From Escherichia phage Dru_SM5, in the sequence record PP920550.1: a DNA stretch of 44,061 bases. One strand, 5' to 3'. Below the pieces are notes generated by a model. That model saw only the letters and a program-made list of their open reading frames with translations, had not been told where the DNA came from and did not search any database. How positions within the stretch are numbered: position 1 is the stretch's first letter; the number at the start of each line of letters is the position of its first letter. The translations under genes and the position numbers were made by a program. This document shows, in pieces, positions 5,987 through 42,690 of the stretch.

Positions 5987-6052
5987 TTTGTTACCCTCAT
6001 TGGTTGGTATGCAACCAATATATTGCAACCAATCCACCAATGCAAGCGAATT

Positions 6053-6080
6053 TTGCGATTATTTTTATCGCTGATAATAT
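6053..6080 (+). promoter_or_regulatory. candidate sigma70-type promoter for scaffold/capsid operon
   Basis: TTGCGA, 16 nt spacer, TAATAT, about 55 nt upstream of the ATG at 6136. Preceded by a cluster of GCAACCAAT motifs (5998-6046). Confidence 0.35.
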
Positions 6081-6135
6081 TAGAGGCGTGAAGTCGAGCG
6101 GGTGGCCTGCTCTGCCACAATCCCAGGGGGATAGC

Positions 6136-6837
6136 ATGAAACTTACTAAAGCAGAATATGACGCGTTGCCAGAAGGCATGAAGGCCTTATTTGTTGCCGA
6201 TGGTGACGGGTATAAATCAACGTTCATGACCGCAGAAGAAGTACAGGCGGAAATCAAGGGTCTGAAAGACAACAACGCGAAGCTGGTGAGCGAGAAGAAA
6301 GCAGAAGCCGAACGCCGCGCCGAAGCTGAGCGACTTGCGAAAGAGAAAGAGGAAGCCGCCGCGCGCAAAAATGGCGACCTCGAAGCGATCGACAAGTCCT
6401 GGAAAGATAAGTTTGCGAAACACGAAGCAGACACATCGGGAAAAATCGAAGCCTACCGCAAGCAGATCCACGACCTAACCATCGGCAGCGCTGCCAAAGA
6501 CCTGGCATCGAAGCTGTTCGGTAAGAATGCGGGCATCATGCAACGCCACGTAATGGATCGCCTGACGCTGGAAGACGGCGAAGACGGCAGCTTGAAAGTG
6601 CGTGTCTTGCAGGATGGCAAACCGTCCGCGCTGACTATGGAAGAGCTTGAAAAAGAGTTCCGTAATAACGCCGATTTTGCATCCGTCCTGGCTGGCACGC
6701 CAGCCGGTGGCGCGCCTAGCAAACCGACGCAGGTTGTCGAAGATGTGAAGTCGAAAATCACTATGGGCCATAGCTTCGGTATCACTGACCTTACGAAACA
6801 GGCAGGTGAAATCATCGCGAAGATGGGCGACGAGTAA
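6136..6837 (+). CDS. putative head scaffolding protein
   Basis: Track ORF starts at 6004; ATG at 6136 follows an AGGGGGA RBS. Charged, A/E/K-rich coiled-coil-like composition. Sits immediately upstream of the major capsid gene. Confidence 0.55.
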   Translation: MKLTKAEYDALPEGMKALFVADGDGYKSTFMTAEEVQAEIKGLKDNNAKLVSEKKAEAERRAEAERLAKEKEEAAARKNGDLEAIDKSWKDKFAKHEADTSGKIEAYRKQIHDLTIGSAAKDLASKLFGKNAGIMQRHVMDRLTLEDGEDGSLKVRVLQDGKPSALTMEELEKEFRNNADFASVLAGTPAGGAPSKPTQVVEDVKSKITMGHSFGITDLTKQAGEIIAKMGDE

Positions 6838-6934
6838 GCAGATCGCCCGCGAAAGCGGGCGATTTTGCTAGCGCGGAAATCTAAGGTAACATTAACGTCA
6901 CTGGGCGAATGCTCACAACTCAAAGGATTTCGAT

Positions 6935-8035
6935 ATGTCTTTAACAGTGTTCCAGCGTAAACTCGTTACCGCGGTTACGCAAATGATCCCCGACAACCTG
7001 AACGTTTTCAACGCCGCCGCCAATGGCGCTGTTGTTCTCGGTACTGGTGAAGTGCTGAAGGACGTTATTGAGAAAATGTCCGTAGGCTTGATCGCCAACC
7101 TCGTTACCGACCGTAACGCCTACGCCCCTGTCGGCACTCCGGCAACCGCGAAAGTTCTGGCGCGTATGCTGACCAACTCGGTTAACCTTTCCGCAAAAGT
7201 GGGTCCGGTAGCAATCACTAAGGCTATGATGGCTAAGATCGAAACCAACGTTAACAGCGTTGCGGCTGAGATTGCGGCACAGGCTACTCAAGCGATTATG
7301 CTGCACTACCTGAAAGCTGGTATCGGCGCAAGTAAAGCGGCGATCGAAAGCAACGCAGCGGCAAAATACACCCAACCGGCGCGCGTTGACGGCGTTGGTG
7401 GTCGTACCTTCCCGACCCTGGCAGACTTCCCGCTGGCGGCTTCTAAGTTCGGCGATCAGGCGTCTTTGATTAAGTCCTGGTTTATGGACGGCGTTACCTG
7501 GGCAAACTTCATTGCGTACCAGGCACTCCCTTCCGCTGAACAGGTATTCGCAATTGGCGATCTACAGGTAATGGGTGATGGCCTGGGCCGACGATTCATT
7601 ATCTCCGATGCCGCTGCCGATGCTATGGGCGCTGGTAACATGCTGGGTCTGGTTCCTGGCGCGGTTGCAGTTACCACCAACGGCCTCGATATGCTGGCGC
7701 AGGAGAAAGGCGGTAACGAGAACATCGAACGCTGGTGGCAGGGCGAGTTCGACTTCAACGTGGCCGTTAAAGGCTACCGTCTGAAGGCGTCCGCTCGTAC
7801 CCCGATCGAAGGTGTGCGCTCGTTCAAACTGGACGATATTACCACTTCCGCTAACTGGGAACTGGACCAGGGCCAGGTAGACAACGCACCGGCAACCGTG
7901 CAGGACGTTGGCGCTGTGGGTGATGGCGATACTAAAGGTCGTCGTAAGACCCAGGCTGCACAGGCAGTGCCTACCCGTCACATCAAGGAAACCGCTGGCG
8001 TACTGGTTACGCTGACTGCGACTACCGCGTCTTAA
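6935..8035 (+). CDS. major capsid protein
   Basis: 366 aa ORF with RBS AAAGGA, followed by a strong terminator. Position after scaffold. Ala/Gly/Val-rich composition typical of capsid proteins. Confidence 0.7.
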   Translation: MSLTVFQRKLVTAVTQMIPDNLNVFNAAANGAVVLGTGEVLKDVIEKMSVGLIANLVTDRNAYAPVGTPATAKVLARMLTNSVNLSAKVGPVAITKAMMAKIETNVNSVAAEIAAQATQAIMLHYLKAGIGASKAAIESNAAAKYTQPARVDGVGGRTFPTLADFPLAASKFGDQASLIKSWFMDGVTWANFIAYQALPSAEQVFAIGDLQVMGDGLGRRFIISDAAADAMGAGNMLGLVPGAVAVTTNGLDMLAQEKGGNENIERWWQGEFDFNVAVKGYRLKASARTPIEGVRSFKLDDITTSANWELDQGQVDNAPATVQDVGAVGDGDTKGRRKTQAAQAVPTRHIKETAGVLVTLTATTAS

Positions 8036-8043
8036 CGGGCGCA

Positions 8044-8069
8044 CATCCCAAAGGGGCGGGCTTATGCCC
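8044..8069 (+). terminator. intrinsic terminator after major capsid gene
   Basis: GGCGGGC-tta-TGCCCGCC hairpin followed by TTTTTT. Confidence 0.55.
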
Positions 8070-8093
8070 GCCTTTTTTATAGGAGTGAATACA

Positions 8094-8594
8094 ATGTATG
8101 GCGACCCGCAAACCTTTGTCGATTATGCCGCTGCGCGAGGCGTTGAAATTACGCTAGGCGATGCAACGCGACACCTTACCATCGTTAACGACTTCCTTAA
8201 CGGCATCAACTGGATCGGCGAACAAGCAGACCAGACCGGAATCGACGCATGGCCCCGCATTAATTACCCGTCAGACGGTAAGCCGGTGCGCGACACGCTC
8301 ACTGAAGTTGTGGAAGTAGTGCCTGCCGGGCAGATCGTAGACTTCGCATCAACCCCCGTTGCCGTTGAGCAAGCTGTTTACCGGTTGGCGATGTTGGTGG
8401 CGGACGAGGTCGATATTTCTCCTGTTGGCAGTGGTAAGGAGACTATCCGCGAAACTGTTGGCCCGATCACGATGGAATATGACCCTGCGACGATTGGTAG
8501 CGGTGTCTCGTTCCCGTGGTGGGATGGCTTGCTAGGCCACTGGATTGACTCGGACGGCAACGCAGCGGGTAATTTTGACGTATTCCGGGGGTGA
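8094..8594 (+). CDS. hypothetical head-tail connector region protein
   Basis: Track ORF from 8064; ATG at 8094 follows an AGGAG RBS. Lies between capsid and tail genes. Confidence 0.5.
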   Translation: MYGDPQTFVDYAAARGVEITLGDATRHLTIVNDFLNGINWIGEQADQTGIDAWPRINYPSDGKPVRDTLTEVVEVVPAGQIVDFASTPVAVEQAVYRLAMLVADEVDISPVGSGKETIRETVGPITMEYDPATIGSGVSFPWWDGLLGHWIDSDGNAAGNFDVFRG

Positions 8595-9053: not shown

Positions 9054-9647
9054 GTGGCTGAAGTCTACTCGTTCGCCGCCACTATTGCTACGTGGGTGGA
9101 TAAGACGAAGGAGAACAACGACAAGGCGGTGCGGGCGTACGGTATGCAAATACTCGGACGCCTGATCGAGATCTCCCCAGTGGGCGACCCGCGCCGATGG
9201 AAAATTAACAGGGCTTACGCGCTCGCCCGCCAGCACGCAAACAAGGTGAACGCCGCACAGCGTCGCAAGAATGGCGGCAAACTGAAGCGCGGTCAGAAGA
9301 AGCACGCCAGTGTGCTGGTATCATTCAAAACTAAAAACGGCAACGTCACGTTCCGCCAGCGCGGCTGGGCCGCGAAGAATTACACCGGGGGGCGCTTCCG
9401 GGGGAACTGGCAGGTGACGTTCGACCGCCCGGCTGTGGGCGCTATTGACCGCGTGGACAAGGCCGGAACGGCAACATTAGCCGCTGGGCGTGAAGTGCTG
9501 GCACATTACGATTCGAGTGAATACGGGTCGATCTGGTTTACTAACAACGTGCCATACGCGCAGCGCCTAGAGTATGGCTGGAGTAAACAAGCGCCCGCGG
9601 GGATTGTTCGCGTAGTAGCGGCAGAAATTAATTCGAAGGTGAAATAA
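9054..9647 (+). CDS. putative neck / tail completion protein
   Basis: GTG start after an AAGGGGG RBS. 197 aa. Position between head-tail joining and tail tube genes. Confidence 0.5.
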   Translation: MAEVYSFAATIATWVDKTKENNDKAVRAYGMQILGRLIEISPVGDPRRWKINRAYALARQHANKVNAAQRRKNGGKLKRGQKKHASVLVSFKTKNGNVTFRQRGWAAKNYTGGRFRGNWQVTFDRPAVGAIDRVDKAGTATLAAGREVLAHYDSSEYGSIWFTNNVPYAQRLEYGWSKQAPAGIVRVVAAEINSKVK

Positions 9648-10855: not shown

Positions 10856-10886
10856 TTTGGTCGCTTAAATAGCGAGTGATAATATG

Positions 10887-11616: not shown

Positions 11617-11637
11617 GGGACGTCCCGTTTTGTCCCG
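11617..11637 (+). terminator. terminator-like hairpin 1 (GGGACGTCCC palindrome + GTTTT)
   Basis: GCGGGACGTCCCG followed by TTTTGTCCCGCC, just after the frameshift-product stop. Confidence 0.4.
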
Positions 11638-11693
11638 CCTCTGTAAAACTGCATATCTACTCACTTCCACTGCATAAACTCAAAACGGGACAA

Positions 11694-11714
11694 GCGGGAC
11701 GTCCCGTTTTGTCA
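11694..11714 (+). terminator. terminator-like hairpin 2 (second copy of GGGACGTCCC + GTTTT)
   Basis: Near-identical GCGGGACGTCCCGTTTTGTC. Part of a roughly 76 bp tandem repeat with hairpin 1. Confidence 0.4.
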
Positions 11715-11734
11715 CGCCCTGTAAATATGCATAC

Positions 11735-11923
11735 CTATGCAGATTTCGTGCATAAACCAAACGGGACAGAAAGCGGGACAAACACGAGGCGGGACAAAAC
11801 GGGACAGCACCCCGTCCCCGCCAGTGCTGCCGCGGTTTTCAGCCGATCGGGACAGCGGGACAGCACCCCAGTCTTTCAGACTAGACGGGGGTCAATGGCC
11901 CCCCCTCGTCTGAGACTGAATAA
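11735..11923 (+). repeat. GGGACA-iteron + GC-hairpin element, copy A
   Basis: About 189 bp with TATGCAG..TGCATAAA, four CGGGACA iterons (11762-11808), two more (11849-11862), then conserved GTCTTTCAGACTAGACGGGGGTCAATGGCCCCCCCTCGTCTGAGACTGAATAA. Roughly 85% identical by eye to copy B. Confidence 0.8.
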
Positions 11924-26608: not shown

Positions 26609-26636
26609 TAAAAAGGGCGTCCAAACCGGACACCCT
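26609..26636 (-). terminator. minus-strand intrinsic terminator / attenuator
   Basis: Minus strand: GGGTGTCC-ggtttg-GACGCCC followed by TTTTT, immediately upstream of the RBS of the 26590 gene. Confidence 0.45.
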
Positions 26637-26671
26637 TAATGTAATGCAACCAATCTAATTATGCAACCAAT

Positions 26672-30064: not shown

Positions 30065-30068
30065 AATC

Positions 30069-32360: not shown

Positions 32361-32527
32361 TGCTTTATCCTCACTACGGCGTCAGCGCTGCCGATCATGG
32401 AGAAGATGCCGTCGGACAGGGCGATCTCTTCTCCATTGTTGCGAATCTCGGCAACTGTGAAATACTCGCCCAGCAATTTGGACCATACCTGCATTCCGAC
32501 TTTTACTTCGCTGGCTTTAATACGCAT
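32357..32527 (-). CDS. small hypothetical ORF translationally coupled to DNA polymerase
   Basis: 55 aa ORF (MRIKASEVKVGMQVWSKLLGEYF...) whose TGA stop overlaps the polymerase ATG (ATGA). Below the track size cut-off; weak RBS. Confidence 0.3.
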   Translation of the reverse strand: MRIKASEVKVGMQVWSKLLGEYFTVAEIRNNGEEIALSDGIFSMIGSADAVVRIKQ

Positions 32528-32541
32528 TTTTCATTGTCCTA

Positions 32542-32567
32542 TTAAAAAGCCCGCATTAAGCGGGCTT
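32542..32567 (-). terminator. minus-strand intrinsic terminator
   Basis: Minus strand: AGCCCGC-ttaat-GCGGGCT followed by TTTTT, after the SSB-like gene. Confidence 0.5.
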
Positions 32568-32585
32568 GAATAGTGGGCTTTGCCC

Positions 32586-33308
32586 TTAACGGCGGCGACG
32601 TTTACGTGGCGCTTCGTCTTCGTCGTCGTCCTCATCTTCGTCATCGCGTGGCTTACGACGTTTGCGAGGTTTTTCATCTTCCTCATCGTCATCACGACGT
32701 TTTGACTTTTTGGACTTACGCGGGCTTTCGTCTTCGTCGTCGTTGTCCAGGTCTTCATCGGAGCAAGACGACCCGCCACCTCCGAAGGCTTCGCCGTCTT
32801 CACGGAATCGCAGACCCAGCAATCCAGCCCCGAGACCCTTGCCGTTGGTATTGTTCCACGCCCAAATATCCAGGGACACATTGCAATAACAACCGGAGTA
32901 GATCTCCCGGCCTTCGATCTCGTCGCCTTCTACGGTCAGACCTTGTTCCGTCTGCTTCTCGCCGAGTGACGTTTGAATGATCGGCTGTTTGAACGATTTG
33001 GCGTTGATGTACAACATGCCTTCGAATTCTTCGGTTACTTCGTCGCGCTCGTCACCGTCGCGAACTGCGCATTCCTTAGAATCCTGGGCGTAGTGGCGGT
33101 CCATCCACTTATCGGCATTCTTCTCGGATTTCAGCTTATCGGTGAGCACTGCGCGCGCTGCCGCTTCCACTTTGTCCACCTGCGGATCTTCTTTATCCAG
33201 AAGAATCACGGCACGGTATGCCGGTTTTTGTCCATCCTGTTTAGGGGTATCACGTTCCCAAATTTTAAGGAAGCATACGCGCACATTTTTCAGGTTGACT
33301 TTAGCCAT
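32586..33308 (-). CDS. putative ssDNA-binding protein with mixed-charge C-terminal tail
   Basis: ATG at 33308 follows a GAGGAA RBS. Globular N-terminal roughly 170 aa, then a Gly-rich linker and a roughly 60 aa tail of alternating acidic and basic clusters ending RKRRRR. SSB call is tentative. Confidence 0.45.
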   Translation of the reverse strand: MAKVNLKNVRVCFLKIWERDTPKQDGQKPAYRAVILLDKEDPQVDKVEAAARAVLTDKLKSEKNADKWMDRHYAQDSKECAVRDGDERDEVTEEFEGMLYINAKSFKQPIIQTSLGEKQTEQGLTVEGDEIEGREIYSGCYCNVSLDIWAWNNTNGKGLGAGLLGLRFREDGEAFGGGGSSCSDEDLDNDDEDESPRKSKKSKRRDDDEEDEKPRKRRKPRDDEDEDDDEDEAPRKRRRR

Positions 33309-33405
33309 TTTCCAATTCCTCATTTTCACATGTATCGGGGTTATTGGAAGCCACCCCGTTCGGCTTGGTTGCTAATTTACTTGGTTGCGCCTAAGCGGTC
33401 AAGCT

Positions 33406-33639
33406 TTATTTATCAAAAAGTTTTAAAATCAGGTCGAGATATTTGTGCAGCCACACCAGCGGCGGGCGGTGCACGTTGTTTTCCATCCAGTTAAGGCAGG
33501 CTTCGTTATAGCCGTCGTCCCATACGCGGGATGGGTGGCGAATCATCCAGGCTAACGCCAGCAGACCGCCGCAGGTATGTACTACGAATCCCAGTGCCGC
33601 CAACGGCAGCACCAAAATCATCGCCATAATCTTATTCAT
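33406..33639 (-). CDS. small membrane protein
   Basis: 77 aa with an N-terminal TM helix (MAMILVLPLAALGFVV). Confidence 0.45.
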   Translation of the reverse strand: MNKIMAMILVLPLAALGFVVHTCGGLLALAWMIRHPSRVWDDGYNEACLNWMENNVHRPPLVWLHKYLDLILKLFDK

Positions 33640-35062
33640 TGCTTAAGTCCTCGTCAGTAGCTTCCGACCACGCAGGGCGCGGGTCGTCGATTGGTGCTAA
33701 CACCGGTTTGGCTGGTGCGCGCGTGATTTTATCACACAGCTTCGCCCACACTTTCGGTTTTTCGTCCTTCAGTACCTTCTCGGCATCCGTAGGGCTGAGC
33801 AATGTTTCTTTGTACATCACATCGCGCTTGATCCGGGCCTTCGTGAAGATTTCAATAACTTCGCTCTCGTCCGCCCACTTACGGATCCCTTCCTTACCGG
33901 CAACCATCTTGAGGCCCAGCGATTCGCCATCGCCCGCCATTACCGCTTTGAATACCGCGGACTCGATAGCTTTGATGTGCTGGCGCATTGCGTCCAGGCC
34001 TTCATAAGCCTTGCGCAGTTCCGCAGCGCTCATAGCGCCTGGGGCCGCTTCTTTCTTGCCACGCTTCGCACGTCGTGCCGCTTTGCGGGCTTCGCGGGCC
34101 ATATTGCGGTCGTGATTGGCGCATTCTTCCTCTGTCGCAATACTTACGTCGTCGCCCAGGTCTTCGTCTGTTGCCGTTGGTGGGGTCATCGTGTCGATTG
34201 CAGCCTTAGCGCGGGCGCTACACTGATCCGCAAATCTGCACCACTGACACGCATCAACGCTCGGTCGGAAGTCGGCACGGGTGAGTCCCTTTTTGCCGCG
34301 GGCGTACGCTTCCAGGGCGGCGATAGCACGCTTTGACGCAAACTTAGCGAATATCTCCAGGGCTTCTACCGAAATATCCCACTCCGACGCCCCGCCGCAA
34401 TACGGCTGGAAGATAACCAGGCGCACGGTCGTGATGTCGTACATGGATTGCAGCTTGCGCAGCAGGCCGAGCGCGTACAACATAAGCTGTTTGTTTTCTT
34501 TCGCCTCGACCTTATGCCGCCCGGTCTTCAGGTCGCCAACAATCAGCATGTACGTGCCGTCGGTCTTCTTCATGACCATGACCATATCCGCAGTGCCGAA
34601 CGTCTTAACCCGGTTGCCGTCGATCTCGAAGCCAGAGTGTAGGACGCGGGTGAGATCGGCGCGCATCTCAAGCTGAACAAACTCCGCCACTTCGAGGAGC
34701 GGTCGCCAGTGGTCGATGTACGCGTCGCACTGTTTCACCATGTCGTCGTTGACCAGTACGCCGCCTTTCGGTGCTTTCGGGTGGGCCTTTACAGGCCCCT
34801 TACCTTCGTTCTCGACGTAACACCCTTTGTACGTCTTAGCGGTTATCAGCTTCTCACCGGCGATAATACGGTTGAGCACGACTTCAGATACGGTGTGCAT
34901 ACTCGTACCGTTAATCGCCGCTTGCCCGGATTCGTTCGGGATACCCTGTTCTACCACCAGGGCGGCGGGGCAACCCATCCATTTTTTAGCACCGGATGGC
35001 CCGAGTAATGAATGTTCCGTATTACTACCGGATTGTGTTTTGCGCTTCGGTTTAATCGCCAT
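33632..35062 (-). CDS. PD-(D/E)xK nuclease with Fe-S Cys cluster (Cas4/RecB-like)
   Basis: 476 aa. N-terminal Cys (WMGCPA), PD-(D/E)xK-like core (GTADMVMV...IVGDLKTG...QLMLYALG), and C-terminal Cys triad CQWCRFADQC typical of 4Fe-4S Cas4-family nucleases. Long charged C-terminal extension. Confidence 0.55.
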   Translation of the reverse strand: MAIKPKRKTQSGSNTEHSLLGPSGAKKWMGCPAALVVEQGIPNESGQAAINGTSMHTVSEVVLNRIIAGEKLITAKTYKGCYVENEGKGPVKAHPKAPKGGVLVNDDMVKQCDAYIDHWRPLLEVAEFVQLEMRADLTRVLHSGFEIDGNRVKTFGTADMVMVMKKTDGTYMLIVGDLKTGRHKVEAKENKQLMLYALGLLRKLQSMYDITTVRLVIFQPYCGGASEWDISVEALEIFAKFASKRAIAALEAYARGKKGLTRADFRPSVDACQWCRFADQCSARAKAAIDTMTPPTATDEDLGDDVSIATEEECANHDRNMAREARKAARRAKRGKKEAAPGAMSAAELRKAYEGLDAMRQHIKAIESAVFKAVMAGDGESLGLKMVAGKEGIRKWADESEVIEIFTKARIKRDVMYKETLLSPTDAEKVLKDEKPKVWAKLCDKITRAPAKPVLAPIDDPRPAWSEATDEDLSNE

Positions 35063-35250
35063 TATTCCACCCTTGAAAATTGAGCAATGTAATAATCGTG
35101 TTCAACATTGGCCCGCTTCGCGGCATTGTTCATGGTAGCCGCCAGTCCTCGAGCTTGCATCCAGCAGCAATTCCAGTTTTGATCCATAACGATTTCTGGT
35201 TGCTCGTCGCCGGTAATACGGCAACGAAATAAAACAAAGAATATAGCCAT
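35062..35250 (-). CDS. hypothetical protein
   Basis: 62 aa ORF in a tightly packed operon; start/stop overlaps with neighbours. Confidence 0.35.
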   Translation of the reverse strand: MAIFFVLFRCRITGDEQPEIVMDQNWNCCWMQARGLAATMNNAAKRANVEHDYYIAQFSRVE

Positions 35251-35502
35251 TTATTTTGTCTCCCAGCGGTCAATTGTTTTTGCTTCGGATGCAACTGCGA
35301 AGCGAACATATTCCAGATTGGAATCAGCCCAAATATAAAAGTCTGGATTAATAAAGGTGGTGCGCTTAATTTGCGCGGGAGTATTGCGGCGTTTATCTAT
35401 TACGGCAACGCGTGACTGAAAGTTGCCGATGCGTTCGAATAGCCAATAATAAGGGCGTTGGTCGCGTGAATCCACCGCCTCGATTAGCGTGAAGCGTGCC
35501 AT
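35251..35502 (-). CDS. hypothetical protein
   Basis: 83 aa with RBS GAGGA, immediately after a terminator hairpin. Confidence 0.45.
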   Translation of the reverse strand: MARFTLIEAVDSRDQRPYYWLFERIGNFQSRVAVIDKRRNTPAQIKRTTFINPDFYIWADSNLEYVRFAVASEAKTIDRWETK

Positions 35503-35513
35503 TGTCTCGTCCT

Positions 35514-35543
35514 CTAAAAAGAGGCCCGCAGATTAGCGGGCCG
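35514..35543 (-). terminator. minus-strand intrinsic terminator / attenuator
   Basis: Minus strand: GGCCCGC-taatct-GCGGGCC followed by a T-run, then directly the RBS of the 35502 gene. Confidence 0.5.
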
Positions 35544-35550
35544 GAATACA

Positions 35551-36066
35551 TTAATCTTCCAGTTCGAAATAGGTTTCGACGATTTCTTTTAGCTCTGTGT
35601 GGAAGTCTTCGACGTCGTCATCTTCCAGCTTGGCGATTGATTTGATCTCGAACGATTCCAGCAGGTCGTCGAATTCGTCGTTCGCATCGTCGTCGTCACC
35701 ACCGGCAATAATCGCGGCATACTGTTTGATCTCGTCGCGCATCTCTGCCAGCGGATCGGCATCTTTCTTGCCTTTGCCTTTTGCCGGTGCTTTTTTAGAC
35801 TTAGCCGGTTTTTCATCTTCGGCATCGTCGTCTTCTTCTTCTACGACTTCTTTTTTGGCCTTACCCTTCGCCGGTGCTTTTTTAGCTTTAGCCGGTTTTT
35901 CGTCTTCGGCGTCATCGTCGCCATCTTCGACAACTTCTTTTTTGGCCTTAGACGGCTTCTTGTCTTCCTGCTTACCAACGGCAGCGCCAACGGTTTCATA
36001 ATGCTTTGCAATGGTTTCCAGTGCTACTACGCCGCGAGTGATCAGGTTTACGATTTGCTCAAACAT
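35551..36066 (-). CDS. zwitterionic repeat protein (first gene of leftward early operon)
   Basis: ATG at 36066 follows a GGAGA RBS (171 aa). Two tandem roughly 30 aa repeats of KKEVVE-DDDAEDEKPAK-KKAPAKGK-KK, encoded by roughly 99 bp tandem DNA repeats (about 35765-35960). Highly acidic C-terminus. Confidence 0.6.
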   Translation of the reverse strand: MFEQIVNLITRGVVALETIAKHYETVGAAVGKQEDKKPSKAKKEVVEDGDDDAEDEKPAKAKKAPAKGKAKKEVVEEEDDDAEDEKPAKSKKAPAKGKGKKDADPLAEMRDEIKQYAAIIAGGDDDDANDEFDDLLESFEIKSIAKLEDDDVEDFHTELKEIVETYFELED

Positions 36067-36406
36067 GGTATATCTCCGATTGGTTAAGTTTAGGTGTCGG
36101 CAGTTAACTTCGTCGGTGGCCTTAACATATTGCCAGGTTACGCGTTCTCCCGTTCGGGTAGTGGACCTGGTTATATAATCACGGTTGGGAATCCTGACAC
36201 TTCGATCCGTCCCCTGCGTTGCCCCTCTCCAGTTTGCGTCCTGCATCCTGTCGACGGAGTGAATGATAGATTGGTTGCAGGATGGGTGTCAACAACTAAT
36301 TTCAAAAAAAAGCGCCGAGGCAAAATGCACCGGCGCTAACCAATAAGAGACAATGAGACGGGAGTATTATTACACGCGTGCGCGCCCGTTTCAATATCCA
36401 AAGGAT

Positions 36407-36435
36407 TTGACACCGTGCAGTTTTGGGTGTAGTTT
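36407..36435 (+). promoter_or_regulatory. candidate rightward early promoter with operator-like palindrome
   Basis: TTGACA, 17 nt spacer, TAGTTT, followed by inverted repeat GTTGGT-catca-ACCAAC (36436-36452) and RBS CAGGAGA before the ATG at 36467. Confidence 0.45.
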
Positions 36436-36466
36436 CGTTGGTCATCAACCAACAGGAGACTGAATT

Positions 36467-36796
36467 ATGAATATCAAAGAAGCAATTGAAGTGTTATCTA
36501 ATGCAATCCGCGGCGAAGCGGGTAAATCCTGGTATTACACAAATGCGGTGGATACTCTGTTATTTGAAGTGTCCAGATTATCGCGTGCGGAGAAGGAGCT
36601 TACCGCGAAGCTGGAATTGCTCAACGGCACGGCAGCAAGCAAGCTGCAAAAACACAATGAAGAAATGGAAGAATACAAAAAGCAGGTTATCCGTTTGCGC
36701 AATGAGGGAAAGTCATGGGCAATGATCGCCGAGTTAACCGGAATTAATCAGAGCACAGTGCGCTCCTGGGTACGCAATAATAAAACTTCTAAGTAA
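36467..36796 (+). CDS. HTH DNA-binding protein (putative transcriptional regulator)
   Basis: 109 aa with a C-terminal helix-turn-helix-like segment GKSWAMIAELTGINQSTVRSWV. First gene after the early promoter. Confidence 0.55.
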   Translation: MNIKEAIEVLSNAIRGEAGKSWYYTNAVDTLLFEVSRLSRAEKELTAKLELLNGTAASKLQKHNEEMEEYKKQVIRLRNEGKSWAMIAELTGINQSTVRSWVRNNKTSK

Positions 36797-36806
36797 GGCC
36801 ACGGCA

Positions 36807-39071
36807 ATGAGCTTAATTAAATTCGCTGTAACACGACCCGCTAAAAAAGGCGAAAAAGCCAGGGCGGAAAACTTCCAGATGACTACCGAAGAGTTTTTCG
36901 AATTTATCAATGACGCGAAAGAAATCTCCTCGGTGCATATTAACAAAACGGAAGATAAAGCGGAGTATGCACGCCGCAAGCGTAAGGCCGATGGCATTGT
37001 GGCTTATACCAGTGACGGCTTACGTCGCAAGACCAGTGCGGTGGACCGCTCGATCCTGTTCTTCGATATCGACCGTACTGACACCCGCACCCTGCGCCGC
37101 TGCCGTAAGGCGTTCATCGACGCGGGACTGGAACATGTATTTCACACCACTACCGGCGACCGCCACCCGCTGAAAGGGGGCACGCGTTGCGCTCGTTTCC
37201 TGGTGCTCACCGATAAGCCTGTACCGGCTGAAGACCTGGGCCGCGTCCAGTATGCACTATTACACCAACTGGGTCTGTCAGATGTGGACTTCGACGATTG
37301 CACGAAAGACACAAACCGCCTGATGTACCTGCCACACCAGCAGTCTGTTATTAAGTGCCACTACGGCAAGCGTGCCCGCGTCCGTCGTCTGCTTCGCCTG
37401 GCTGATAAGCTGGGAATGGAAAAAGAGGAAGTACGACGCGAACTGACCCAGGGCGATGACGGCGTGGCGGACGGTATTCTGGATTGGTGCTTCCAGGCAG
37501 GATTCGAACCGCTGTCGTCCGGTCGTGGTTATGAAGTGCCATGCCCGAACGAACACCTGCACAGTGGTGAAGGGTCCACCGCTATCATGGTTAAGGATGG
37601 CGAGATCCGTTTCAAGTGTATGCACACCGGCAACGAGTGTTGCTCGGAACTGAACAGACACCAGCACCTGGCGCTACGTCTTATCGGGATCCCGGACCAC
37701 CTGAACGTCGAACCGCACAACATGTCACGTAAGCAAATCGCCGCCATCCTCCCAGGTCTGGACGACGAGGAAGTGGAATCGTGCTATGAACATATCGTTG
37801 ATGCGGTCGGAGACGGCGACGAGTACGGCGTGTGTACTGATGCAGACCTGGACAACGAGCCGGTCGCACTGTTCAGTAAGCACGACCCGATCATCGAAGG
37901 CCTGGTCAACTTCAAATCGACCTGGTATCTCGCCGGTGAGTCGAACATTGGCAAGTCGTTCTACGTGCTGGGCCAGATGGCGTCAGTATCTGCCGGTATT
38001 CCGTTCGGCGGTGCGAAGGTCGTCCAGTCTCATTGCTTCTATTTCGATGCGGAAGGTGGTGAGGCCCCCAACCAGCGTAAAGAAGCATTGCAGATTAAAT
38101 ACGAGCACGACCTGGACAAGCTGCACATTATAGACCTGCAGTCACGCGGCTGGGATATCACCAGCAAATCAGGCTTGCGCGAAGTTATCAGCTTTATCAA
38201 CCGCACCGCTAACGGCGAACCGGTTGGCCTGGTGGCGTTCGACTCACTCAACCAGACTGTTGCGTTGCGGTCCGCTGATGCTAAACCGTTCGACGAGAAC
38301 AACGCCAGCGATATGGGTGAAGTGGTCAAAGCGCTGAAGGCCATCGCGGAAAATACAGGTGGCAGTGCGGGCGTCATCCACCACCCGGCTAAAGGTGCAA
38401 ACGGCAGCAGAACCCCCCGAGGGTCCGGCGCGCTGCATGGTGCTGTCGATTCTGCGTTCTTCCTGGAACAGCCGGACGACAACCAGCCCGGACAATTGAA
38501 CCTGTATCATGAGAAGTCACGTAACGGCATCAAGCAAGCGCCGCGCGGCTTCGTCCTGCTCAAGTGCAAGGTGAAGGTGGATCTCCGCAAGTCAGAAGCG
38601 TTCGAGGCGCACCAGTCCACCAGCACCGGGCCAGACTTCGGCGACGTGGTTGCCGGATGGGACGTCAAGCCGATTGCCTCCACGCCACGCGACGAGACTC
38701 TCTACCTCGTACCGGTTGCCCTGGCACCGTTCGCTATTGAACAGGCGAAGGCCTCGGGCAAAGCAGCAGTTAAAGAAGAGAACACCGCCGGACCGCGCAA
38801 CGAAAAAGAGAAAGTGCTTTATGCGGCACTGGAAAAACTGATGGAAGATAACCCGGACCATACTGGATTCAGTAAATCGGCAATTGTCCGCCAGGCTGGG
38901 CTGGCAAAAGGTGGCACTTCGACGAAGGCAATCGACGATATGGTGGAGCGAGGAGTGATAGGTTTTTACACCGATCCGCACACTGGGGCCATCTATGGGT
39001 CGTCTAATTTGGTCATCAAATCGGATATCCCTATCACGCTTTCAGCGACCGATGACGACTTAAAAGATTAA
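36807..39071 (+). CDS. DNA primase/helicase (primase-polymerase-like N-terminus + P-loop ATPase)
   Basis: N-terminal FFDIDRTD (AEP/prim-pol-like DxD), a Cys/His zinc-binding segment, Walker A GESNIGKS and Walker B LVAFDSLNQ. 754 aa. Confidence 0.6.
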   Translation: MSLIKFAVTRPAKKGEKARAENFQMTTEEFFEFINDAKEISSVHINKTEDKAEYARRKRKADGIVAYTSDGLRRKTSAVDRSILFFDIDRTDTRTLRRCRKAFIDAGLEHVFHTTTGDRHPLKGGTRCARFLVLTDKPVPAEDLGRVQYALLHQLGLSDVDFDDCTKDTNRLMYLPHQQSVIKCHYGKRARVRRLLRLADKLGMEKEEVRRELTQGDDGVADGILDWCFQAGFEPLSSGRGYEVPCPNEHLHSGEGSTAIMVKDGEIRFKCMHTGNECCSELNRHQHLALRLIGIPDHLNVEPHNMSRKQIAAILPGLDDEEVESCYEHIVDAVGDGDEYGVCTDADLDNEPVALFSKHDPIIEGLVNFKSTWYLAGESNIGKSFYVLGQMASVSAGIPFGGAKVVQSHCFYFDAEGGEAPNQRKEALQIKYEHDLDKLHIIDLQSRGWDITSKSGLREVISFINRTANGEPVGLVAFDSLNQTVALRSADAKPFDENNASDMGEVVKALKAIAENTGGSAGVIHHPAKGANGSRTPRGSGALHGAVDSAFFLEQPDDNQPGQLNLYHEKSRNGIKQAPRGFVLLKCKVKVDLRKSEAFEAHQSTSTGPDFGDVVAGWDVKPIASTPRDETLYLVPVALAPFAIEQAKASGKAAVKEENTAGPRNEKEKVLYAALEKLMEDNPDHTGFSKSAIVRQAGLAKGGTSTKAIDDMVERGVIGFYTDPHTGAIYGSSNLVIKSDIPITLSATDDDLKD

Positions 39072-39182
39072 ATTCTGCGCGCATTGGTTGCCGATATGGG
39101 AATTCCCATATCGCTAAACGATTAATTTGTGCGCGTATTGGTTGCCATTTTGCGTGTTTTTATCTGGTCGTATTGGTTGCCG
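39066..39182 (+). repeat. direct repeats flanking a perfect 22-bp palindrome (origin- or operator-like)
   Basis: 27 bp direct repeats at 39066-39092 and 39120-39146 (GATTAAATTCTGCGCGCATTGGTTGCC and a near copy), a partial third at 39170-39182, and the perfect palindrome CGATATGGGAATTCCCATATCG at 39092-39113. Confidence 0.7.
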
Positions 39183-39206
39183 TGTAGTGTAAATATAATG
39201 AATAGT

Positions 39207-39393
39207 TATGCAGTTTTATTGCATAAAGTAAGCGGGACAGAAAGCGGGACAAACAAGAGGCGGGACAAAGCGGGACAGCACCCCCGTCCCGCCCCGGATG
39301 ACGCGGCCTGGCGAGGAGCGGGACAGGCGGGACAAACCCAAGTCTTTCAGACTAGACGGGGGTCCATGGCCCCCCTCGTCTGAGACTGAATAA
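39207..39393 (+). repeat. GGGACA-iteron + GC-hairpin element, copy B
   Basis: About 187 bp paralog of 11735-11923: TATGCAG..TGCATAAA, four CGGGACA iterons, two more, then a near-identical conserved hairpin block. A TATAAT box at 39195-39200 sits just upstream. Confidence 0.8.
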
Positions 39394-39548
39394 AATCCGG
39401 GGATTGCAAAATACACGGCAGCATGATGCGAAGGGCGGTCGTCGATGAACCAGGCAACCAATGCGGGTTGCATTATGCTGAGTGAAAAATGCAGTTTGCA
39501 GTTGCAGCAGATAGCGATCAACTTTTTCATGCGCGTGATTAATATTGG

Positions 39549-39577
39549 TTGCATTCAGCCTGGAGCCTTGATATATT
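39549..39577 (+). promoter_or_regulatory. candidate promoter for the 39606 operon
   Basis: TTGCAT, 17 nt spacer, TATATT, then RBS ATGAGGA and the ATG at 39606. The -35 hexamer lies inside an ATTGGTTGCAT motif. Confidence 0.4.
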
Positions 39578-39605
39578 GGTTGCACACCAACATGAGGACT
39601 GAACA

Positions 39606-39932
39606 ATGAGAGCGATTATCTGGAATTACGCAATGGCTATGGCGGCGGCACAAGAAGCGGCGGAGTTCGCCGGTGAAGGAGCGGAAGCGGTCGAAAGACT
39701 ATCGGCAGCGTGGTCCGTTGTTCGCGTTACGCAGCAGGCCATCGCCTGTATGCTGGAGCGCCGCTTCGACACTATGGCAGAGATTCAGCCACTGGCGAAC
39801 GCTATCCAGGATTACGCGCTTGCCTTTGCCCGTGAGCGCCTGGCGTATCGCTTCGGGATCGGCGAGACGGCAGTGACTAACGTCGCCCGGATTAAAGCCC
39901 AGCGTGAGCTATTCTCCCAGCTTGCGAAATAA
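39606..39932 (+). CDS. hypothetical protein
   Basis: 108 aa with RBS ATGAGGA. Ala-rich. Confidence 0.55.
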   Translation: MRAIIWNYAMAMAAAQEAAEFAGEGAEAVERLSAAWSVVRVTQQAIACMLERRFDTMAEIQPLANAIQDYALAFARERLAYRFGIGETAVTNVARIKAQRELFSQLAK

Positions 39933-39941
39933 GAGGCCAAA

Positions 39942-40211
39942 ATGACCCGTAGACGCGCAAAACAGCTTTCGTGGCATATTCCCCTGCATTGCATACGAAT
40001 ATGGGCTAAGAATGCGAATGCGGGGGATTCTGTATTCTGGTGTTATCGCGACGACGTTAAGCCGTTGACGCAGACTCGCTACTTGCACCAGTTCGCAGCA
40101 CAACACGATTTCAGGGTGCGGACTTCCTTGCAACCAATGGGGATTCGTATTACATTACGCCGAAAGCCCGCCATTGAGCGGGTAGGCAAACACTGGAGAC
40201 TGAGCAAATGA
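39942..40211 (+). CDS. hypothetical protein
   Basis: 89 aa basic protein; its stop overlaps the next ATG. Confidence 0.45.
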   Translation: MTRRRAKQLSWHIPLHCIRIWAKNANAGDSVFWCYRDDVKPLTQTRYLHQFAAQHDFRVRTSLQPMGIRITLRRKPAIERVGKHWRLSK

Positions 40212-40360
40212 CACCAATGCAAATAACGCTAATGGCAGGGTATTCGCAGCAATTCGTAGACCTGTTATCTTGCATTGCGGACTATGAGATGGACGGCATC
40301 GCTACGGTGTGCGATGGCGACACGAAGACTGTCGACGAGATTGAGGAGACTGAGCAATGA
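40208..40360 (+). CDS. small acidic hypothetical protein
   Basis: 50 aa ORF (MTPMQITLMAGYSQQF...EIEETEQ). Below the track cut-off; ATGA overlaps at both ends. Start context GGAGACTGAGCAAATG is repeated before the next gene. Confidence 0.35.
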   Translation: MTPMQITLMAGYSQQFVDLLSCIADYEMDGIATVCDGDTKTVDEIEETEQ

Positions 40361-40943
40361 AATTACTATTCCGCCGTAAAGCAGATGGCTACCTAATGCG
40401 GCCGATCCAGGCCCTTGCTACATGCGTGCGCTTGCGCCATGTACACAGCGGACTTGAGTGCCTGGCAGATACGGTTCACCTACCGGCAAACTTTGACGTA
40501 CTCACACATGATATTGAGCGCGGCGATGTTCTGCGTGACATTCGCGACGGGCAGCTATGGATCGTGGAACGCACCTACCGGAACGCACCTACCGGAACGG
40601 CCTGCGTATGCAGACCCGCAAGGGCGGCGTAGTGGGTAACGTTCAGAGGGGTATGACTTACTTCGGCCTTGTCAACTACGAACGAGTGGGCCGCAAATAC
40701 TGCCTACGCAACCGCCAGCCTCATGACCGCGTTGAGTTCCGCAAGTCGCAGCCCGCCTATGCCACCTACGACGCCCACCAGGTGCAGGCGAGGATGAAAC
40801 GCACCGCGCACGAAATCGTCAATCGCTTTGATGCCGTGACAAACGCACAGCGCCATGCGCAGGGATACGGCGTTGGATTCATCCGGGTGGAACGAGACGG
40901 CAGCATGAAGGCCATCGACCCGCGCTCGGTGATTCTGAAATGA
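40357..40943 (+). pseudogene. gene disrupted by 14-bp tandem duplication (frameshift)
   Basis: GAACGCACCTACCG occurs twice in tandem (40567-40580 and 40581-40594). Removing one copy joins track ORFs 40357..40632 and 40557..40943 into one roughly 191 aa frame (...IVERTYRNGLRMQTRKGG...), verified codon by codon. Confidence 0.6.
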
Positions 40944-41064
40944 GTGCGACGATCCGCGATATGCTTCAGCATAACCGCTTTGAGATAGGCGGTCGGGTAT
41001 TTCGCAATTACTTCGTGGCGCGGGCATGGGCGCGCCATATTGGCAAACCAGAGGGGGCAATACG

Positions 41065-41352
41065 ATGCTACACGATTTGATATATTGGTTTGGATTGGGG
41101 TGCGCGACACTCTTTGCCACGGTGCTGGCGCTGTTGGTATGGGTGTTCCTGATTTGGCCCGCGGTGGAGGCAGCCAGCATTACCCGCATGACGTTCCAGA
41201 TATACAAGCGCCGGGGCATAACGGAGCACCCGACCAGGTTGCGTATGTGGTGGTTGTGGTATAGGGATATGATAGGCGGTCGAACATTCGAAGCCGTCCG
41301 GTCGAGTGGATGGGAGTGGAAAGGCGTCGGCAAGTGGTCCATTTTCGATTAA
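41065..41352 (+). CDS. membrane protein (lysis-cassette associated)
   Basis: ATG at 41065 follows a GAGGGGG RBS. N-terminal TM helix (LIYWFGLGCATLFATVLALLVWVFLIW), Trp/Arg-rich C-terminus. Confidence 0.5.
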   Translation: MLHDLIYWFGLGCATLFATVLALLVWVFLIWPAVEAASITRMTFQIYKRRGITEHPTRLRMWWLWYRDMIGGRTFEAVRSSGWEWKGVGKWSIFD

Positions 41353-41404
41353 ATACGCAAGCGTGATATAGTCCCAGTGAGCTAAAACTTACTGGGACTT
41401 TTTT

Positions 41405-41695
41405 ATGGATAAGCTAAACGAGTGGTTATTCGCCCTTGCGTGTCTTGCTGGTGGCTTCGTGGGCGCACGCATTCACGGCGAGGCAACGAAAGGGCCGTTG
41501 AACTTCGTTTTATATGTCGTAGTTGGCTTCCTGTGCGCCATATTTGGTGCGCCAGCCATTGCCGAGTGGTCTGGTTTGTCCGGTGAGCGCACTGTCGCCG
41601 GTTTGGGCTTCGTAACTGCAATCTTCTGGATGCCAATAGCCGCCCGGATCAGGGAGACTATTGAGTCGTTCCGACTTCCGGGGGGCGCAAAATGA
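41405..41695 (+). CDS. putative holin
   Basis: 96 aa with about three hydrophobic TM segments and a charged C-terminus. Two genes upstream of the endolysin. Confidence 0.55.
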   Translation: MDKLNEWLFALACLAGGFVGARIHGEATKGPLNFVLYVVVGFLCAIFGAPAIAEWSGLSGERTVAGLGFVTAIFWMPIAARIRETIESFRLPGGAK

Positions 41696-41937
41696 TTATC
41701 TCCGTCCTGTTGTTTGTTATCATAGGGGCTTCGTCCCTGTTTAACGTGTATGCGCCGTCCGTCCAGGATGGCATTTTAGGCCGGGTGCTATATCTGCTAA
41801 CGGCGATGATCTGCGTTGTCGGATTGTTGCAAACAGGAGACGTATCTGACACCACCTGGACCGCGTTAATCTGGCTGTTTGCATTGCGCACACTGCGTAA
41901 TGCTGTTTTGAATGGGGTAAAACATGCGATTCAGTGA
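41692..41937 (+). CDS. putative holin/antiholin-like membrane protein
   Basis: 81 aa with 2-3 TM segments. Overlaps neighbours; directly upstream of the endolysin. Confidence 0.5.
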   Translation: MIISVLLFVIIGASSLFNVYAPSVQDGILGRVLYLLTAMICVVGLLQTGDVSDTTWTALIWLFALRTLRNAVLNGVKHAIQ

Positions 41938-42415
41938 CAACGGTCTGAGATTTACGGCAGCATGGGAGCAATTCAGCCCAGTGCCGTATTTCGCGACTAA
42001 GAAAGAGCAGGCCCGCGGCCTGTATACCTGGGGCTATGGTCACACCGGCACTAATCCGCCGCGGAGCATTACCCGTGCGGAAGCACTGGAGCTACTCAAG
42101 CGCGACGTGGCGTATGCCGAGAACTGGGTAAACAAGTACGCACACCCGAGCATTAATCAGGCGCAATTCGACGCGCTGGTGGACCTGGTTATCAATGCCG
42201 GTCCAGGTCCGATCATGCCGGACGACGTCGCCGGTGACTTCGACGATGCGATCCGCCTGGGTGACTGGGCAAAGGTCCGTGCTACGCTGCCACAATTCCG
42301 CAAGCAAGGCGGGGCAGTGCTCAAGGGGCTTGTCCGTCGTGCAATCGGCAGGCAGGCACTATTTGATGGTAAGCAGTGGGACGTTGCCGAGAAAATCGGA
42401 CGTAACGCAGCATAA
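41924..42415 (+). CDS. endolysin (lysozyme-like muramidase)
   Basis: 163 aa. N-terminal region with a conserved Glu (AWEQF) and a TWGYGHTG segment resembling the lysozyme/GH24-like fold. Follows holin-like genes. Confidence 0.65.
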   Translation: MRFSDNGLRFTAAWEQFSPVPYFATKKEQARGLYTWGYGHTGTNPPRSITRAEALELLKRDVAYAENWVNKYAHPSINQAQFDALVDLVINAGPGPIMPDDVAGDFDDAIRLGDWAKVRATLPQFRKQGGAVLKGLVRRAIGRQALFDGKQWDVAEKIGRNAA

Positions 42416-42431
42416 TACGGGGTAACACAGT

Positions 42432-42593
42432 ATGTTAAAAAGTATTCGTGATCATAACGCCGACGCGCTCGCCGCGCTGGCTAAAACCGAAGACCCAGGC
42501 GCTCGCGCCATTATCGCGGACACTATCAGTCATGCTGGCGTATTTGACGCGAAGCTGCCGAGTCCGCCACCGCCGGAAGATCCAGAAGTGTAA
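42432..42593 (+). CDS. small hypothetical protein downstream of endolysin
   Basis: 53 aa ORF with RBS GGGGTAA, no TM segment or lipobox. Followed by a terminator. Confidence 0.3.
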   Translation: MLKSIRDHNADALAALAKTEDPGARAIIADTISHAGVFDAKLPSPPPPEDPEV

Positions 42594-42600
42594 ACTACCA

Positions 42601-42626
42601 AGCCCGGTTAATTCCGGGCTTTTTAT
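42601..42626 (+). terminator. intrinsic terminator after lysis cassette
   Basis: AGCCCGG-ttaatt-CCGGGCT followed by TTTTTAT. Confidence 0.6.
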
Positions 42627-42629
42627 TGC

Positions 42630-42659
42630 TTGACTTGCAACCAACATAGACGCCATACT
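42630..42659 (+). promoter_or_regulatory. candidate sigma70-type promoter
   Basis: TTGACT, 18 nt spacer, CATACT. Spacer contains GCAACCAA; GCGACCAA follows. Confidence 0.4.
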
Positions 42660-42690
42660 GCGACCAATCAACAAGAGGAGTATTACACTA

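Follow-up and report, generated by a model that had tools for sequence, protein, structure and literature searches.

Why does the same short word stand before so many genes of Escherichia phage Dru_SM5, and what reads it? The stretch of DNA analysed here, called the window, is the whole 44,061-nt sequence of record PP920550.1. By its sequence it is a complete Dhillonvirus genome (an HK578-like E. coli siphophage) that starts at the small terminase gene; a megablast search with positions 30000–44000 returned full-length Dhillonvirus matches at ~92% identity from many Escherichia phages. The word, ATTGGTTGCA as a 10-mer and TTGGTTGC/GCAACCAA as an 8-mer on the two strands, is enriched, overlaps predicted promoters and is conserved between phages. 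In our assessment the balance tips toward an operator family for one DNA-binding protein, most likely a repressor of early and middle promoters, and the likeliest binder would be a small helix-turn-helix (HTH) protein encoded at 36467–36796.

The motif appears to be a phage-specific regulon word, previously undescribed in the literature searched. No published description of it was found in work on Dhillonvirus, SO-1, HK578, EP23 or SSL-2009a, and the literature searched yielded nothing on Dhillonvirus gene regulation and no transcriptome or 5′-end data for any Dhillonvirus. With ~180 GenBank records, these are common E. coli phages; members belong to the BASEL collection and feature in phage-therapy work. 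A single word placed at the predicted promoters of almost every non-structural gene maps out the transcription units, defines a regulon that can be tested and points to a candidate master regulator, and promoters that switch off or on during infection would be a handle for engineering.

The word and its overlap with predicted promoters

The 10-mer ATTGGTTGCA occurs ~20 times in the genome. Exact matches to the 8-mer were found at 20 sites on both strands, compared with 1.75 expected, and 100 dinucleotide shuffles gave at most 5 sites of TTGGTTGC (TTCCTTGC is an example of a mutated TTGGTTGC). The original prediction, made by eye from the letters alone, listed ~19 copies against a chance expectation of 1–2. 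The listed copies are real, but the site at 16659 on the minus strand, inside the tail-assembly gene, had been missed, and three coordinates were off by one (39084, 39545 and 39576 had been given as 39085, 39546 and 39577); the others were right. With up to one mismatch, the extended 11-mer ATTGGTTGCAA is present at 13 sites (0.76 expected). Five one-mismatch copies of the 8-mer lie in non-coding DNA: 29790, 42660 and 10857 (all TTGGTCGC; the first two had been predicted), 6000 (TTGGTTGG) and 36445 (TTGGTTGA). An unbiased 8-mer enrichment scan, one of the checks proposed at the outset, ranked ATTGGTTG/TTGGTTGC first or close to first in the window and in its relatives Sponge, SO-1, Ioannina and HK578.

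The copies are concentrated outside genes. We transferred a gene map to the window by placing 63 proteins of phage Sponge with tblastn; by this map non-coding DNA makes up 5.2% of the genome, and it holds 16 of the 20 exact sites (binomial p ~1e-17), in line with the claim that the word is almost only intergenic and not equally frequent in coding DNA. The copies at 24748 and 29802 each fall within the final codons of a gene, immediately 5′ of the next one, and the copy at 40130 is intragenic, ~70 nt before the next start codon. Distances from the motif to the start codon it serves were 22–72 nt, inside the 20–80 bp originally proposed. A logo built from 116 distinct contexts in 7 genomes showed a compact, asymmetric word of ~10 bp, Y-R-n-A-TTGGTTGC-(A/C), with no conservation outside it. 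A short asymmetric site with a ~10-bp core, present in 20 copies mostly at intergenic or regulatory positions, has the features of a dispersed asymmetric operator. The individual sites are as follows.

6011–6032, minus strand: two forward copies (6025–6032 and 6011–6018) in the promoter of a leftward cassette (small open reading frame (ORF) 5986–5825 plus the Nmad5 gene); −35 TTGCAT at 6045–6040, −10 TATATT at 6022–6017, copies at about −22 to −15 and −8 to −1.
10857–10864, plus strand: variant TTGGTCGC, intergenic, with the major tail gene on one side and the chaperone gene on the other, and a weak promoter-like TTGGTC-17-TAATAT; weak, and of uncertain status as a site.
16659–16666, minus strand: exact copy in the tail-assembly gene, with a promoter score of 4.2 (background), not conserved in Ioannina; probably a chance occurrence.
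22123–22130, minus strand: forward copy forming the −35 TTGCAA of the promoter of the exclusion-like gene (22067–21852).
24736–24755: inverted pair, 24736–24743 (minus strand) and 24748–24755 (plus strand), in promoter TTGCAA-18-TATAGT of gene 24682–24128; one copy is the −35 and the other stops 2 nt before the −10.
26646–26670, minus strand: direct pair, 17 nt apart, in promoter TTGCAT-17-TACATT of gene 26590–26348; copies at −39 to −32 and −22 to −15.
29790–29809, minus strand: pair in the last codons of the resolvase gene, 29802–29809 exact and 29790–29797 TTGGTCGC, overlapping two promoter candidates (TTGCTG-17-TATAGT and TTGACA-16-TTTATT) for gene 29748–28810.
33365–33388, plus strand: direct pair in the leftward promoter TTGACC-17-TAAATT (33402–33374) of the single-stranded DNA (ssDNA)-binding protein gene and reversed relative to it; copies at −21 to −14 and −5 to +2.
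36271–36278, plus strand: lone copy, reversed, ending 2 nt before the −10 in the spacer of TTGACA-18-TATCAT (36292–36263), the strong early promoter that points leftward.
36438–36453, plus strand: degenerate palindrome TTGGT-catca-ACCAAC right after the −10 of the rightward promoter TTGACA-17-TAGTTT (36407–36435) of the HTH gene.
39084–39180, plus strand: three forward copies (39084, 39138 and 39173) with GCGCG(C/T)A before each, located just past the helicase-primase stop codon, with an AT-rich stretch and GCGGGACA repeats downstream; 39173 can give a −35 in TTGCCG-18-AATAGT.
39454–39461, minus strand: single conserved copy, non-coding, ~45 nt before the start or end point of several Dhillonvirus records; promoter scoring gave no convincing promoter here.
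39545–39583, plus strand: pair, 31 nt apart, in promoter TTGCAT-17-TATATT of gene 39606; copies at −39 to −32 and −8 to −1.
40130–40137, minus strand: reversed copy inside gene 39942–40211, where it forms the −35 of TTGCAA-17-TACATT, an internal promoter serving gene 40208.
42637–42667, minus strand: pair (exact at 42637, TTGGTCGC at 42660) in reversed orientation on the rightward promoter TTGACT-18-CATACT, which lies 3′ of a terminator and 5′ of a 26-codon ORF (42691–42771) and the phosphoesterase gene; copies at about −29 to −22 and −6 to +1.

The direct repeat at 26646/26663 and the inverted repeat with 9-bp arms at 24735–24756, both predicted earlier, are present, as is the predicted palindrome GTTGGT-catca-ACCAAC (~36437–36453), just 3′ of the −10 of the gene 36467 promoter.

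Fifteen of the 20 copies overlap a predicted sigma-70-type promoter whose score exceeds the 95th percentile of random genome positions. The 11 motif promoter regions score 8.4–13.5 bits, with −35- and −10-like hexamers 16–18 nt apart and in the correct orientation 5′ of the gene; three of them (36292–36263, 33402–33374 and 24757–24728) were found independently by a separate promoter scan. Taking the orientation of the served gene as reference, 13 copies are forward and 8 reversed, in registers from −39 to +4 (about −39, −34/−33, −29, −22/−21, −8 and −5). As the −35 hexamer, the word is forward (TTGGTTGCAT, −39 to −32) at 26663, 39545, 29802 and 22123, and reversed (TTGCAACCAA, −34/−33) at 24748 and 40130. 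It stops 1–2 nt before the −10 (−22 to −15) at 6025, 24736 and 26646 (forward) and at 36271 and 33381 (reversed), and lies across −10/+1 at 6011 and 39576 (forward, −8 to −1) and at 33365 and 42660 (reversed, at −5 or −6); the 36438 palindrome is placed likewise. Most motif promoters carry two copies, 12, 14, 16, 17, 23 or 31 nt apart from start to start, and there is one inverted pair. Three sites are palindromic with 5-nt spacing (TTGGT-N5-ACCAA), at 36438–36453, at 39576–39594 and at 6018–6000, where copy 6011 pairs with 6000–6007 as TTGGTTG-N5-CAACCAA; the others are single half-sites.

These promoters fall into two classes. In class 1, comprising the leftward early, ssDNA-binding protein and 42.6-kb promoters, the promoter has its own TTGAC(A/C/T) −35 and the reversed copies lie in the spacer and at the start. 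In class 2, a forward copy gives a TTGCAT or TTGCAA −35 and a second forward copy sits at −22 or −8. We also considered a strand polarity of the sites along the genome (6 switches, ~10 expected). It vanishes once tandem pairs are collapsed, and it is explained by the two promoter classes.

The exact motif is absent from the predicted promoters of the structural region. The layout of the genome, in the Sponge-derived map, is as follows.

23–21829, rightward: structural genes.
5986–5049, minus strand: leftward cassette interrupting the structural genes.
22067–21852, minus strand: superinfection-exclusion-like gene interrupting the structural block.
After the exclusion-like gene, rightward: fibre gene.
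36246–23510, leftward: long block of replication and modification genes.
36467–43974, rightward: block with the small HTH protein and helicase-primase genes, then small genes, lysis genes and the phosphoesterase gene.

One reading, the main one of the original prediction, which we rate as rather unlikely, makes the word an intrinsic part of a phage promoter class read by RNA polymerase, whether with sigma-70 or in a form modified by a phage factor, for example the HTH protein with its likeness to sigma region 4. In its favor, TTGC opens the −35 (TTGCAT, TTGCAA, TTGCTG or TTGCCG), with a −10 17–18 nt on, at 26663, 39545, 29802, 22123, 39173, 24748 and 40130; a composite of −10 and discriminator, TA(T/t)(A/G)TTGGTTGCA, repeats at 6011, 39576, 42637 and 29802; and the HTH protein matches Sigma70_r4_2 just above the cut-off. 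The idea that the word often supplies a −35-like hexamer thus holds for TTGCAT, TTGCAA and TTGCTG at the first four of these sites and at 24748 and 40130, but not as a general rule, since equally many copies lie elsewhere in the core, in both orientations, and some promoters have a TTGACA of their own. At least five registers between −39 and +4 are used, and one 8-mer cannot be the same polymerase contact in all of them and in both orientations, which argues for a separate factor. Promoters with TTGACA or TTGACC still carry the word in the spacer or at +1. Conversely, the homologous leftward promoter of the T1-like phage JLBYU16, followed by the same leader, is intact in sequence terms with a spacer that lacks the word, and in HK578 the hexamers of the rightward promoter are retained and the palindrome is gone (it is present in 5 of the 6 genomes readable there in the alignment). 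The word is therefore a separable add-on. No phage RNA polymerase or sigma factor was found among the proteins scanned. Of the extended promoter element and/or operator family first suggested, the tie to promoters and the phage-specific character at the level of the genus were borne out, and an operator family fits better than a fixed promoter element, given the variable register.

Three other explanations were rejected. An RNA element or hairpin does not suit the mixed orientation relative to transcription or the predicted starts inside the would-be hairpins, and Rfam 15 gave no matches at the gathering score in the whole window (two sub-threshold, chance-level matches fell in 35900–39700). 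The spacing does not fit a sigma-54 promoter, and confinement to promoters is not expected of a DNA-methylase target.

Conservation of the word across phages

Sponge, SO-1, Ioannina and HK578 each carry 19–22 copies of TTGGTTGC (~1.9 expected) at orthologous places. L130, a divergent metagenome relative on a 20-kb contig whose helicase-primase is 67% identical, has 12 copies (0.75 expected) in the same kinds of places, and the 8-mer again ranks first or close to first in over-representation. In Ioannina (82% identity), 18 of 20 motif copies are unchanged, compared with 27% of all aligned 8-mers (p ~7e-9). When 11 motif regions were aligned from 7 genomes, the word was invariant, while the flanks and the bases between copies varied (for example, 26654–26662 and 6033–6039). 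These alignments indicate that the word is genus-wide and under selection.

Single sites give the same picture. Downstream genes can change completely while the word stays, as in the cassette of the 6045–6017 promoter, where both copies are invariant in the 7 genomes. The inverted pair at 24736–24755 is equally invariant, and at 26646–26670, with a terminator hairpin immediately 3′, the spacer between the copies varies among genomes and the copies are constant. In the intragenic copy at 40130, synonymous positions within the motif are invariant while adjacent codons vary. The exclusion-gene promoter of Ioannina has acquired a second copy, which gives it the standard layout of −39 plus −22.

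We give almost no credence to the view that the copies are functionless relics of a duplicated promoter cassette spread by recombination. The stretch from −10 to start of the 39545 promoter is near-identical to 6022–5984, and TATATTGGTTGCA(T/C)ACCAAC..GAGG at 6022–5990 and 39572–39600 looks as if copied. Most copies, however, share a core of 9–10 bp only, in unrelated flanks, and conservation of this core, both between 82%-identical genomes and in L130, far exceeds the background.

Candidate binders and proposed mode of action

36467–36796, plus strand: candidate binder, 109 aa, encoded by the first gene of the rightward operon, 5′ of the helicase-primase gene.

The protein encoded at 36467–36796 matches Pfam HTH_23, Sigma70_r4_2 and HTH_28 above their cut-offs over residues 65–106. 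Among 20 homologs, the first 45 residues are hypervariable and the last 60 are invariant, the latter as expected of a protein bound to ~20 fixed sites. An AlphaFold model (pLDDT 84) predicts a short helix followed by one of 55 residues and a two-helix HTH end. Searches of the Protein Data Bank by fold and by sequence gave generic HTH matches only (E ~1), and tblastn (E≤1e-3) found homologs in Dhillonvirus-type records only. In the L130 homolog (P0026, 39% identical) the TGINxST..W helix is kept along with the motif, and the same is true of HK578 gp45. No DNA-binding signature was seen in the other small proteins scanned, and we found no support for the labels "transposase" (PHROGs) or "gam-like" (public records) given to the HTH protein. 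The syntenic Guernseyvirinae have a Cro-like regulator at this locus instead. With a C-terminal HTH domain, an invariant DNA-binding half and no other recognisable sequence-specific binder among the proteins scanned, the HTH protein, already named in the original prediction, is plausibly the best candidate for binding the word.

Several observations weigh against a repressor operator read by this protein. The promoters are consensus matches, scored by a simple hexamer model, and the score is partly circular where the motif itself is the −35. A copy at −39 to −32 could activate instead of repress, and the copies at 39084–39180, beside a probable origin region, could have a role in replication. 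The HTH homologs found all share essentially one recognition helix and go with the same motif, which leaves no covariation to read. The Serratia phages Tsm2 and Otaku, which belong to the Guernseyvirinae, carry 12 copies of TTGGTTGC, compared with 1.5 expected and at most 6 in 300 simulations, and a homolog of the HTH protein is absent from both by tblastn and hidden Markov model searches; that they keep TTGGTTGC weakens its candidacy. Eleven of the 12 copies in these phages are intragenic, and the sole overlap with a strong promoter is a copy after the resolvase gene. The Serratia data mean either another binder or two unrelated systems that share a word.

The Tsm2 copies include those at 209, 6714 and 9373–9494, and one lies in the divergent early region. 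Between Tsm2 and Otaku, 11 of 12 copies are unchanged where 49% of 8-mers survive (p ~0.003). The post-resolvase copy sits at −3 to +5 of a strong TTGACA-17-TATAGT promoter, in the place of 29802 in the window. A 109-aa Tsm2 protein with a C-terminal HTH was considered as a shared binder and rejected: it aligns weakly with the Dhillonvirus protein, and ChibiTotoro has a 52%-identical relative of it, yet no enrichment (4 sites).

The Serratia phages keep a host factor, or some other shared factor, in play. A host protein conserved in Enterobacterales, recruited or tolerated by the phage, might bind the word, whose site would then be used by unrelated phage lineages. Enrichment and conservation of the 8-mer in Tsm2 and Otaku, which lack the HTH protein, speak for such a factor, as does the unchanged motif of L130, where that protein is only 39% identical. 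The ATTGGT half-site also resembles the half-sites of FadR-subfamily GntR regulators (PdhR, ExuR/UxuR). The palindrome of this subfamily, TTGGT-N2/3-ACCAA, is not what we find, however: GntR sites are palindromes with 2–3-nt spacing, and the sites here are mostly single, with three palindromes spaced by 5 nt. We know of no E. coli regulator with this asymmetric 10-mer. Moreover, TTGGTTGC is not enriched in Cornellvirus, phiEap-2 or ChibiTotoro, which have similar hosts; the syntenic Cornellvirus FSL SP-031 has two copies, and a different regulator at the HTH locus. When 100,044 bacterial genomes were scanned for the 10-mer in tandem pairs, matches came from scattered unrelated taxa and one repeat-rich Anaerolineales metagenome-assembled genome, with no Enterobacterales among the matches listed. 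On this evidence we consider a host protein improbable.

Two further searches concern the range of the motif. In IMG/VR, the contigs with several matches to tandem 8-mer pairs that were checked outside SO-1 proved to be collagen-like coding repeats; the other loci consisted largely of single matches. An analogous dispersed motif was sought in FSL SP-031 and rejected, because the words enriched there are terminator words only.

It is very unlikely, in our view, that the word is a replication element, such as an iteron of the helicase-primase or a priming or loading signal, with a secondary link to promoters. Three direct copies do follow the helicase-primase gene, beside an AT-rich stretch and a second repeat family; four of the Tsm2/Otaku copies lie in the last 200 nt of that gene, in two reading frames; and the C terminus of the enzyme has a winged-helix-like segment, as read from alignments. 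The 17 other copies are dispersed over 11 promoter regions, however, and TTGGTTGC is constant while the winged-helix segment, putative recognition helix included, differs between the window, L130, Tsm2 and FSL SP-031. We rejected this winged helix as the binder on the same ground. The GCGGGACA/GGGGTGCCA repeats described below, which change with the segment, are better iteron candidates.

Returning to an operator family bound by one protein, we infer the following mode of action. Asymmetric sites of ~10 bp would cover the core of the sigma-70-type promoters of the non-structural transcription units, namely both early operons (leftward and rightward), the genes for replication and modification, the small genes at the end of the genome and the reverse cassettes in the structural region. 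A protein seated over a promoter core is generally expected to occlude polymerase, and it is this expectation that suggests a repressor. The bound protein would exclude RNA polymerase from the −35, the spacer or the −10/+1 region and shut these promoters together, making an early-to-late switch that would be Cro-like in logic, with dispersed single sites. The HTH protein would also act on its own promoter via the degenerate palindrome at 36438, which would be an autoregulatory site if this protein is the binder. We regard as unlikely that the HTH protein is a position-dependent switch, repressing TTGACN promoters and activating the class with the forward word as −35, or that the word is an unrecognised host-factor site built independently into two unrelated lineages.

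Systems known from other phages share parts of this arrangement. The C1 operators of P1 likewise consist of an asymmetric word in many dispersed copies, often single or paired, on the promoters of many units. One phage protein reads them, whereas here the binder is only a candidate, and P1 is a temperate phage that uses a 17-bp operator to maintain lysogeny, in contrast to ~10 bp in a virulent genus. The gp71 stoperators of L5, ~20–30 short asymmetric copies in short intergenic regions genome-wide, are similar in number and placement, but they keep one orientation and act on elongation in a temperate phage; the copies here, 13 forward and 8 reverse, lie on promoter cores and do not share one orientation. 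The candidate resembles lambda Cro as a small early HTH protein encoded by the first gene of the rightward operon at divergent early promoters, with a predicted turn-down of early genes and of itself. Cro reads 17-bp palindromes at two loci, in contrast to single, asymmetric, dispersed sites, and its fold differs from the coiled coil with a C-terminal HTH that is modeled here. In T4, MotA boxes are a ~9-bp phage word that replaces the −35 at many promoters of a virulent phage using host sigma-70; they are fixed near −30 in one orientation, whereas our word is found from −39 to +4 in both, with half of the copies in the spacer or at +1. Dhillonvirus is handled as a lytic genus, judging by paper titles, and no integrase or CI-like gene was found in the gene map or in the annotations of relatives; the motif does not group with lysogeny or immunity systems.

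Neighboring repeats, promoters and genes

The second repeat family, GCGGGACA, has 10 copies (2.2 expected). At 39232–39334, in non-coding DNA after the helicase-primase gene, there are six direct copies and an inverted GTCCCGC, and four lie at 11631–11862, just before or in the start of the tape-measure ORF. At the first of these places L130 has GGGGTGCCA repeats instead, and its helicase-primase differs in the C-terminal winged-helix-like segment too. Because repeats and segment change together, GCGGGACA and GGGGTGCCA are suggested to be origin iterons read by the helicase-primase, resembling ori and crr of satellite phage P4. The SO-1 GenBank record marks repeats as "region A / region B", including the repeat-rich non-coding DNA after the helicase-primase gene, and these regions correspond to the GCGGGACA places; TTGGTTGC is not annotated there. 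A palindrome at 39206–39226 (TTATGCA-N7-TGCATAA), which separates the last TTGGTTGC copy from the GCGGGACA repeats, is kept in 7 of 7 genomes, and a perfect 20-bp palindrome at 39093–39112, GATATGGGAATTCCCATATC, occurs only in the window and Sponge.

Two elements lie near the divergent early promoters. On the minus strand at 36394–36300, between these promoters, a strong promoter-like site with TG, TTGAAA-17-AATAAT, stands ~20 nt before a hairpin (GCGCCG..CGGCGC) and T8. This unit is kept in all genomes and could encode a small RNA of ~55 nt, for which Rfam gave no match. The HK578 GenBank record, in which three promoters are marked in the divergent early region and TTGGTTGC is not annotated, has a promoter there. 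At 36120–36256 (minus strand), downstream of the leftward early promoter and ~190 nt before the conserved part of gene 36066–35551, a ~50-nt stretch is ~90% identical to unannotated intergenic DNA of T1-like Drexlerviridae (slyngel, JLBYU16 and BEBK14; 1440–1640 in L136). This leader was no more stable than shuffles in folding (z = +0.6), and the stretch may instead encode the N terminus of a variable protein.

Terminators are interleaved with promoters at 26591–26671 and 42594–42660. At 26.6 kb the predicted start of the motif promoter lies inside the left arm of the terminator hairpin (GGGTGTCC..GGACGCCC plus T5), so that read-through transcripts would stop there and the promoter's own transcripts would not. 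At 43996–44034, before the small terminase gene, a terminator (GCCCGCC..GGTGGGC plus T6) leads directly into TGtTATAAT (44026–44034), an extended −10 promoter that has no exact TTGGTTGC and is probably the late-operon promoter.

Cassette genes served by the motif differ between genomes; here the cassette at 6 kb holds the gene of an Nmad5 (nucleotide-modification-associated) protein, 5049–5810. The 312-aa product of 28810–29748, behind a motif-bearing promoter, is C5-cytosine methylase-like and missing from Sponge. The ORFs 40357–40632 and 40557–40943 match the two halves of phrog_10243, a single protein of 184–185 aa in Sponge, and a frameshift splits the gene (40357–40943) in this genome. 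Downstream of the 42.6-kb promoter, 42691–42771 is an unannotated 26-codon ORF, MARNDIWVLAIWSAAAFIGMVICELL, with a good ribosome-binding site and a start region kept in most relatives.

The WF5505 record has an exact direct terminal repeat of 2026 bp (1–2026 and 45057–47082) that maps to 39505–41137 of the window, the small genes after helicase-primase; the WF5505 paper does not discuss it. Several other Dhillonvirus records start or finish at ~39501–39505, and with this boundary the promoter at 39545–39583 would be the first at the genome end.

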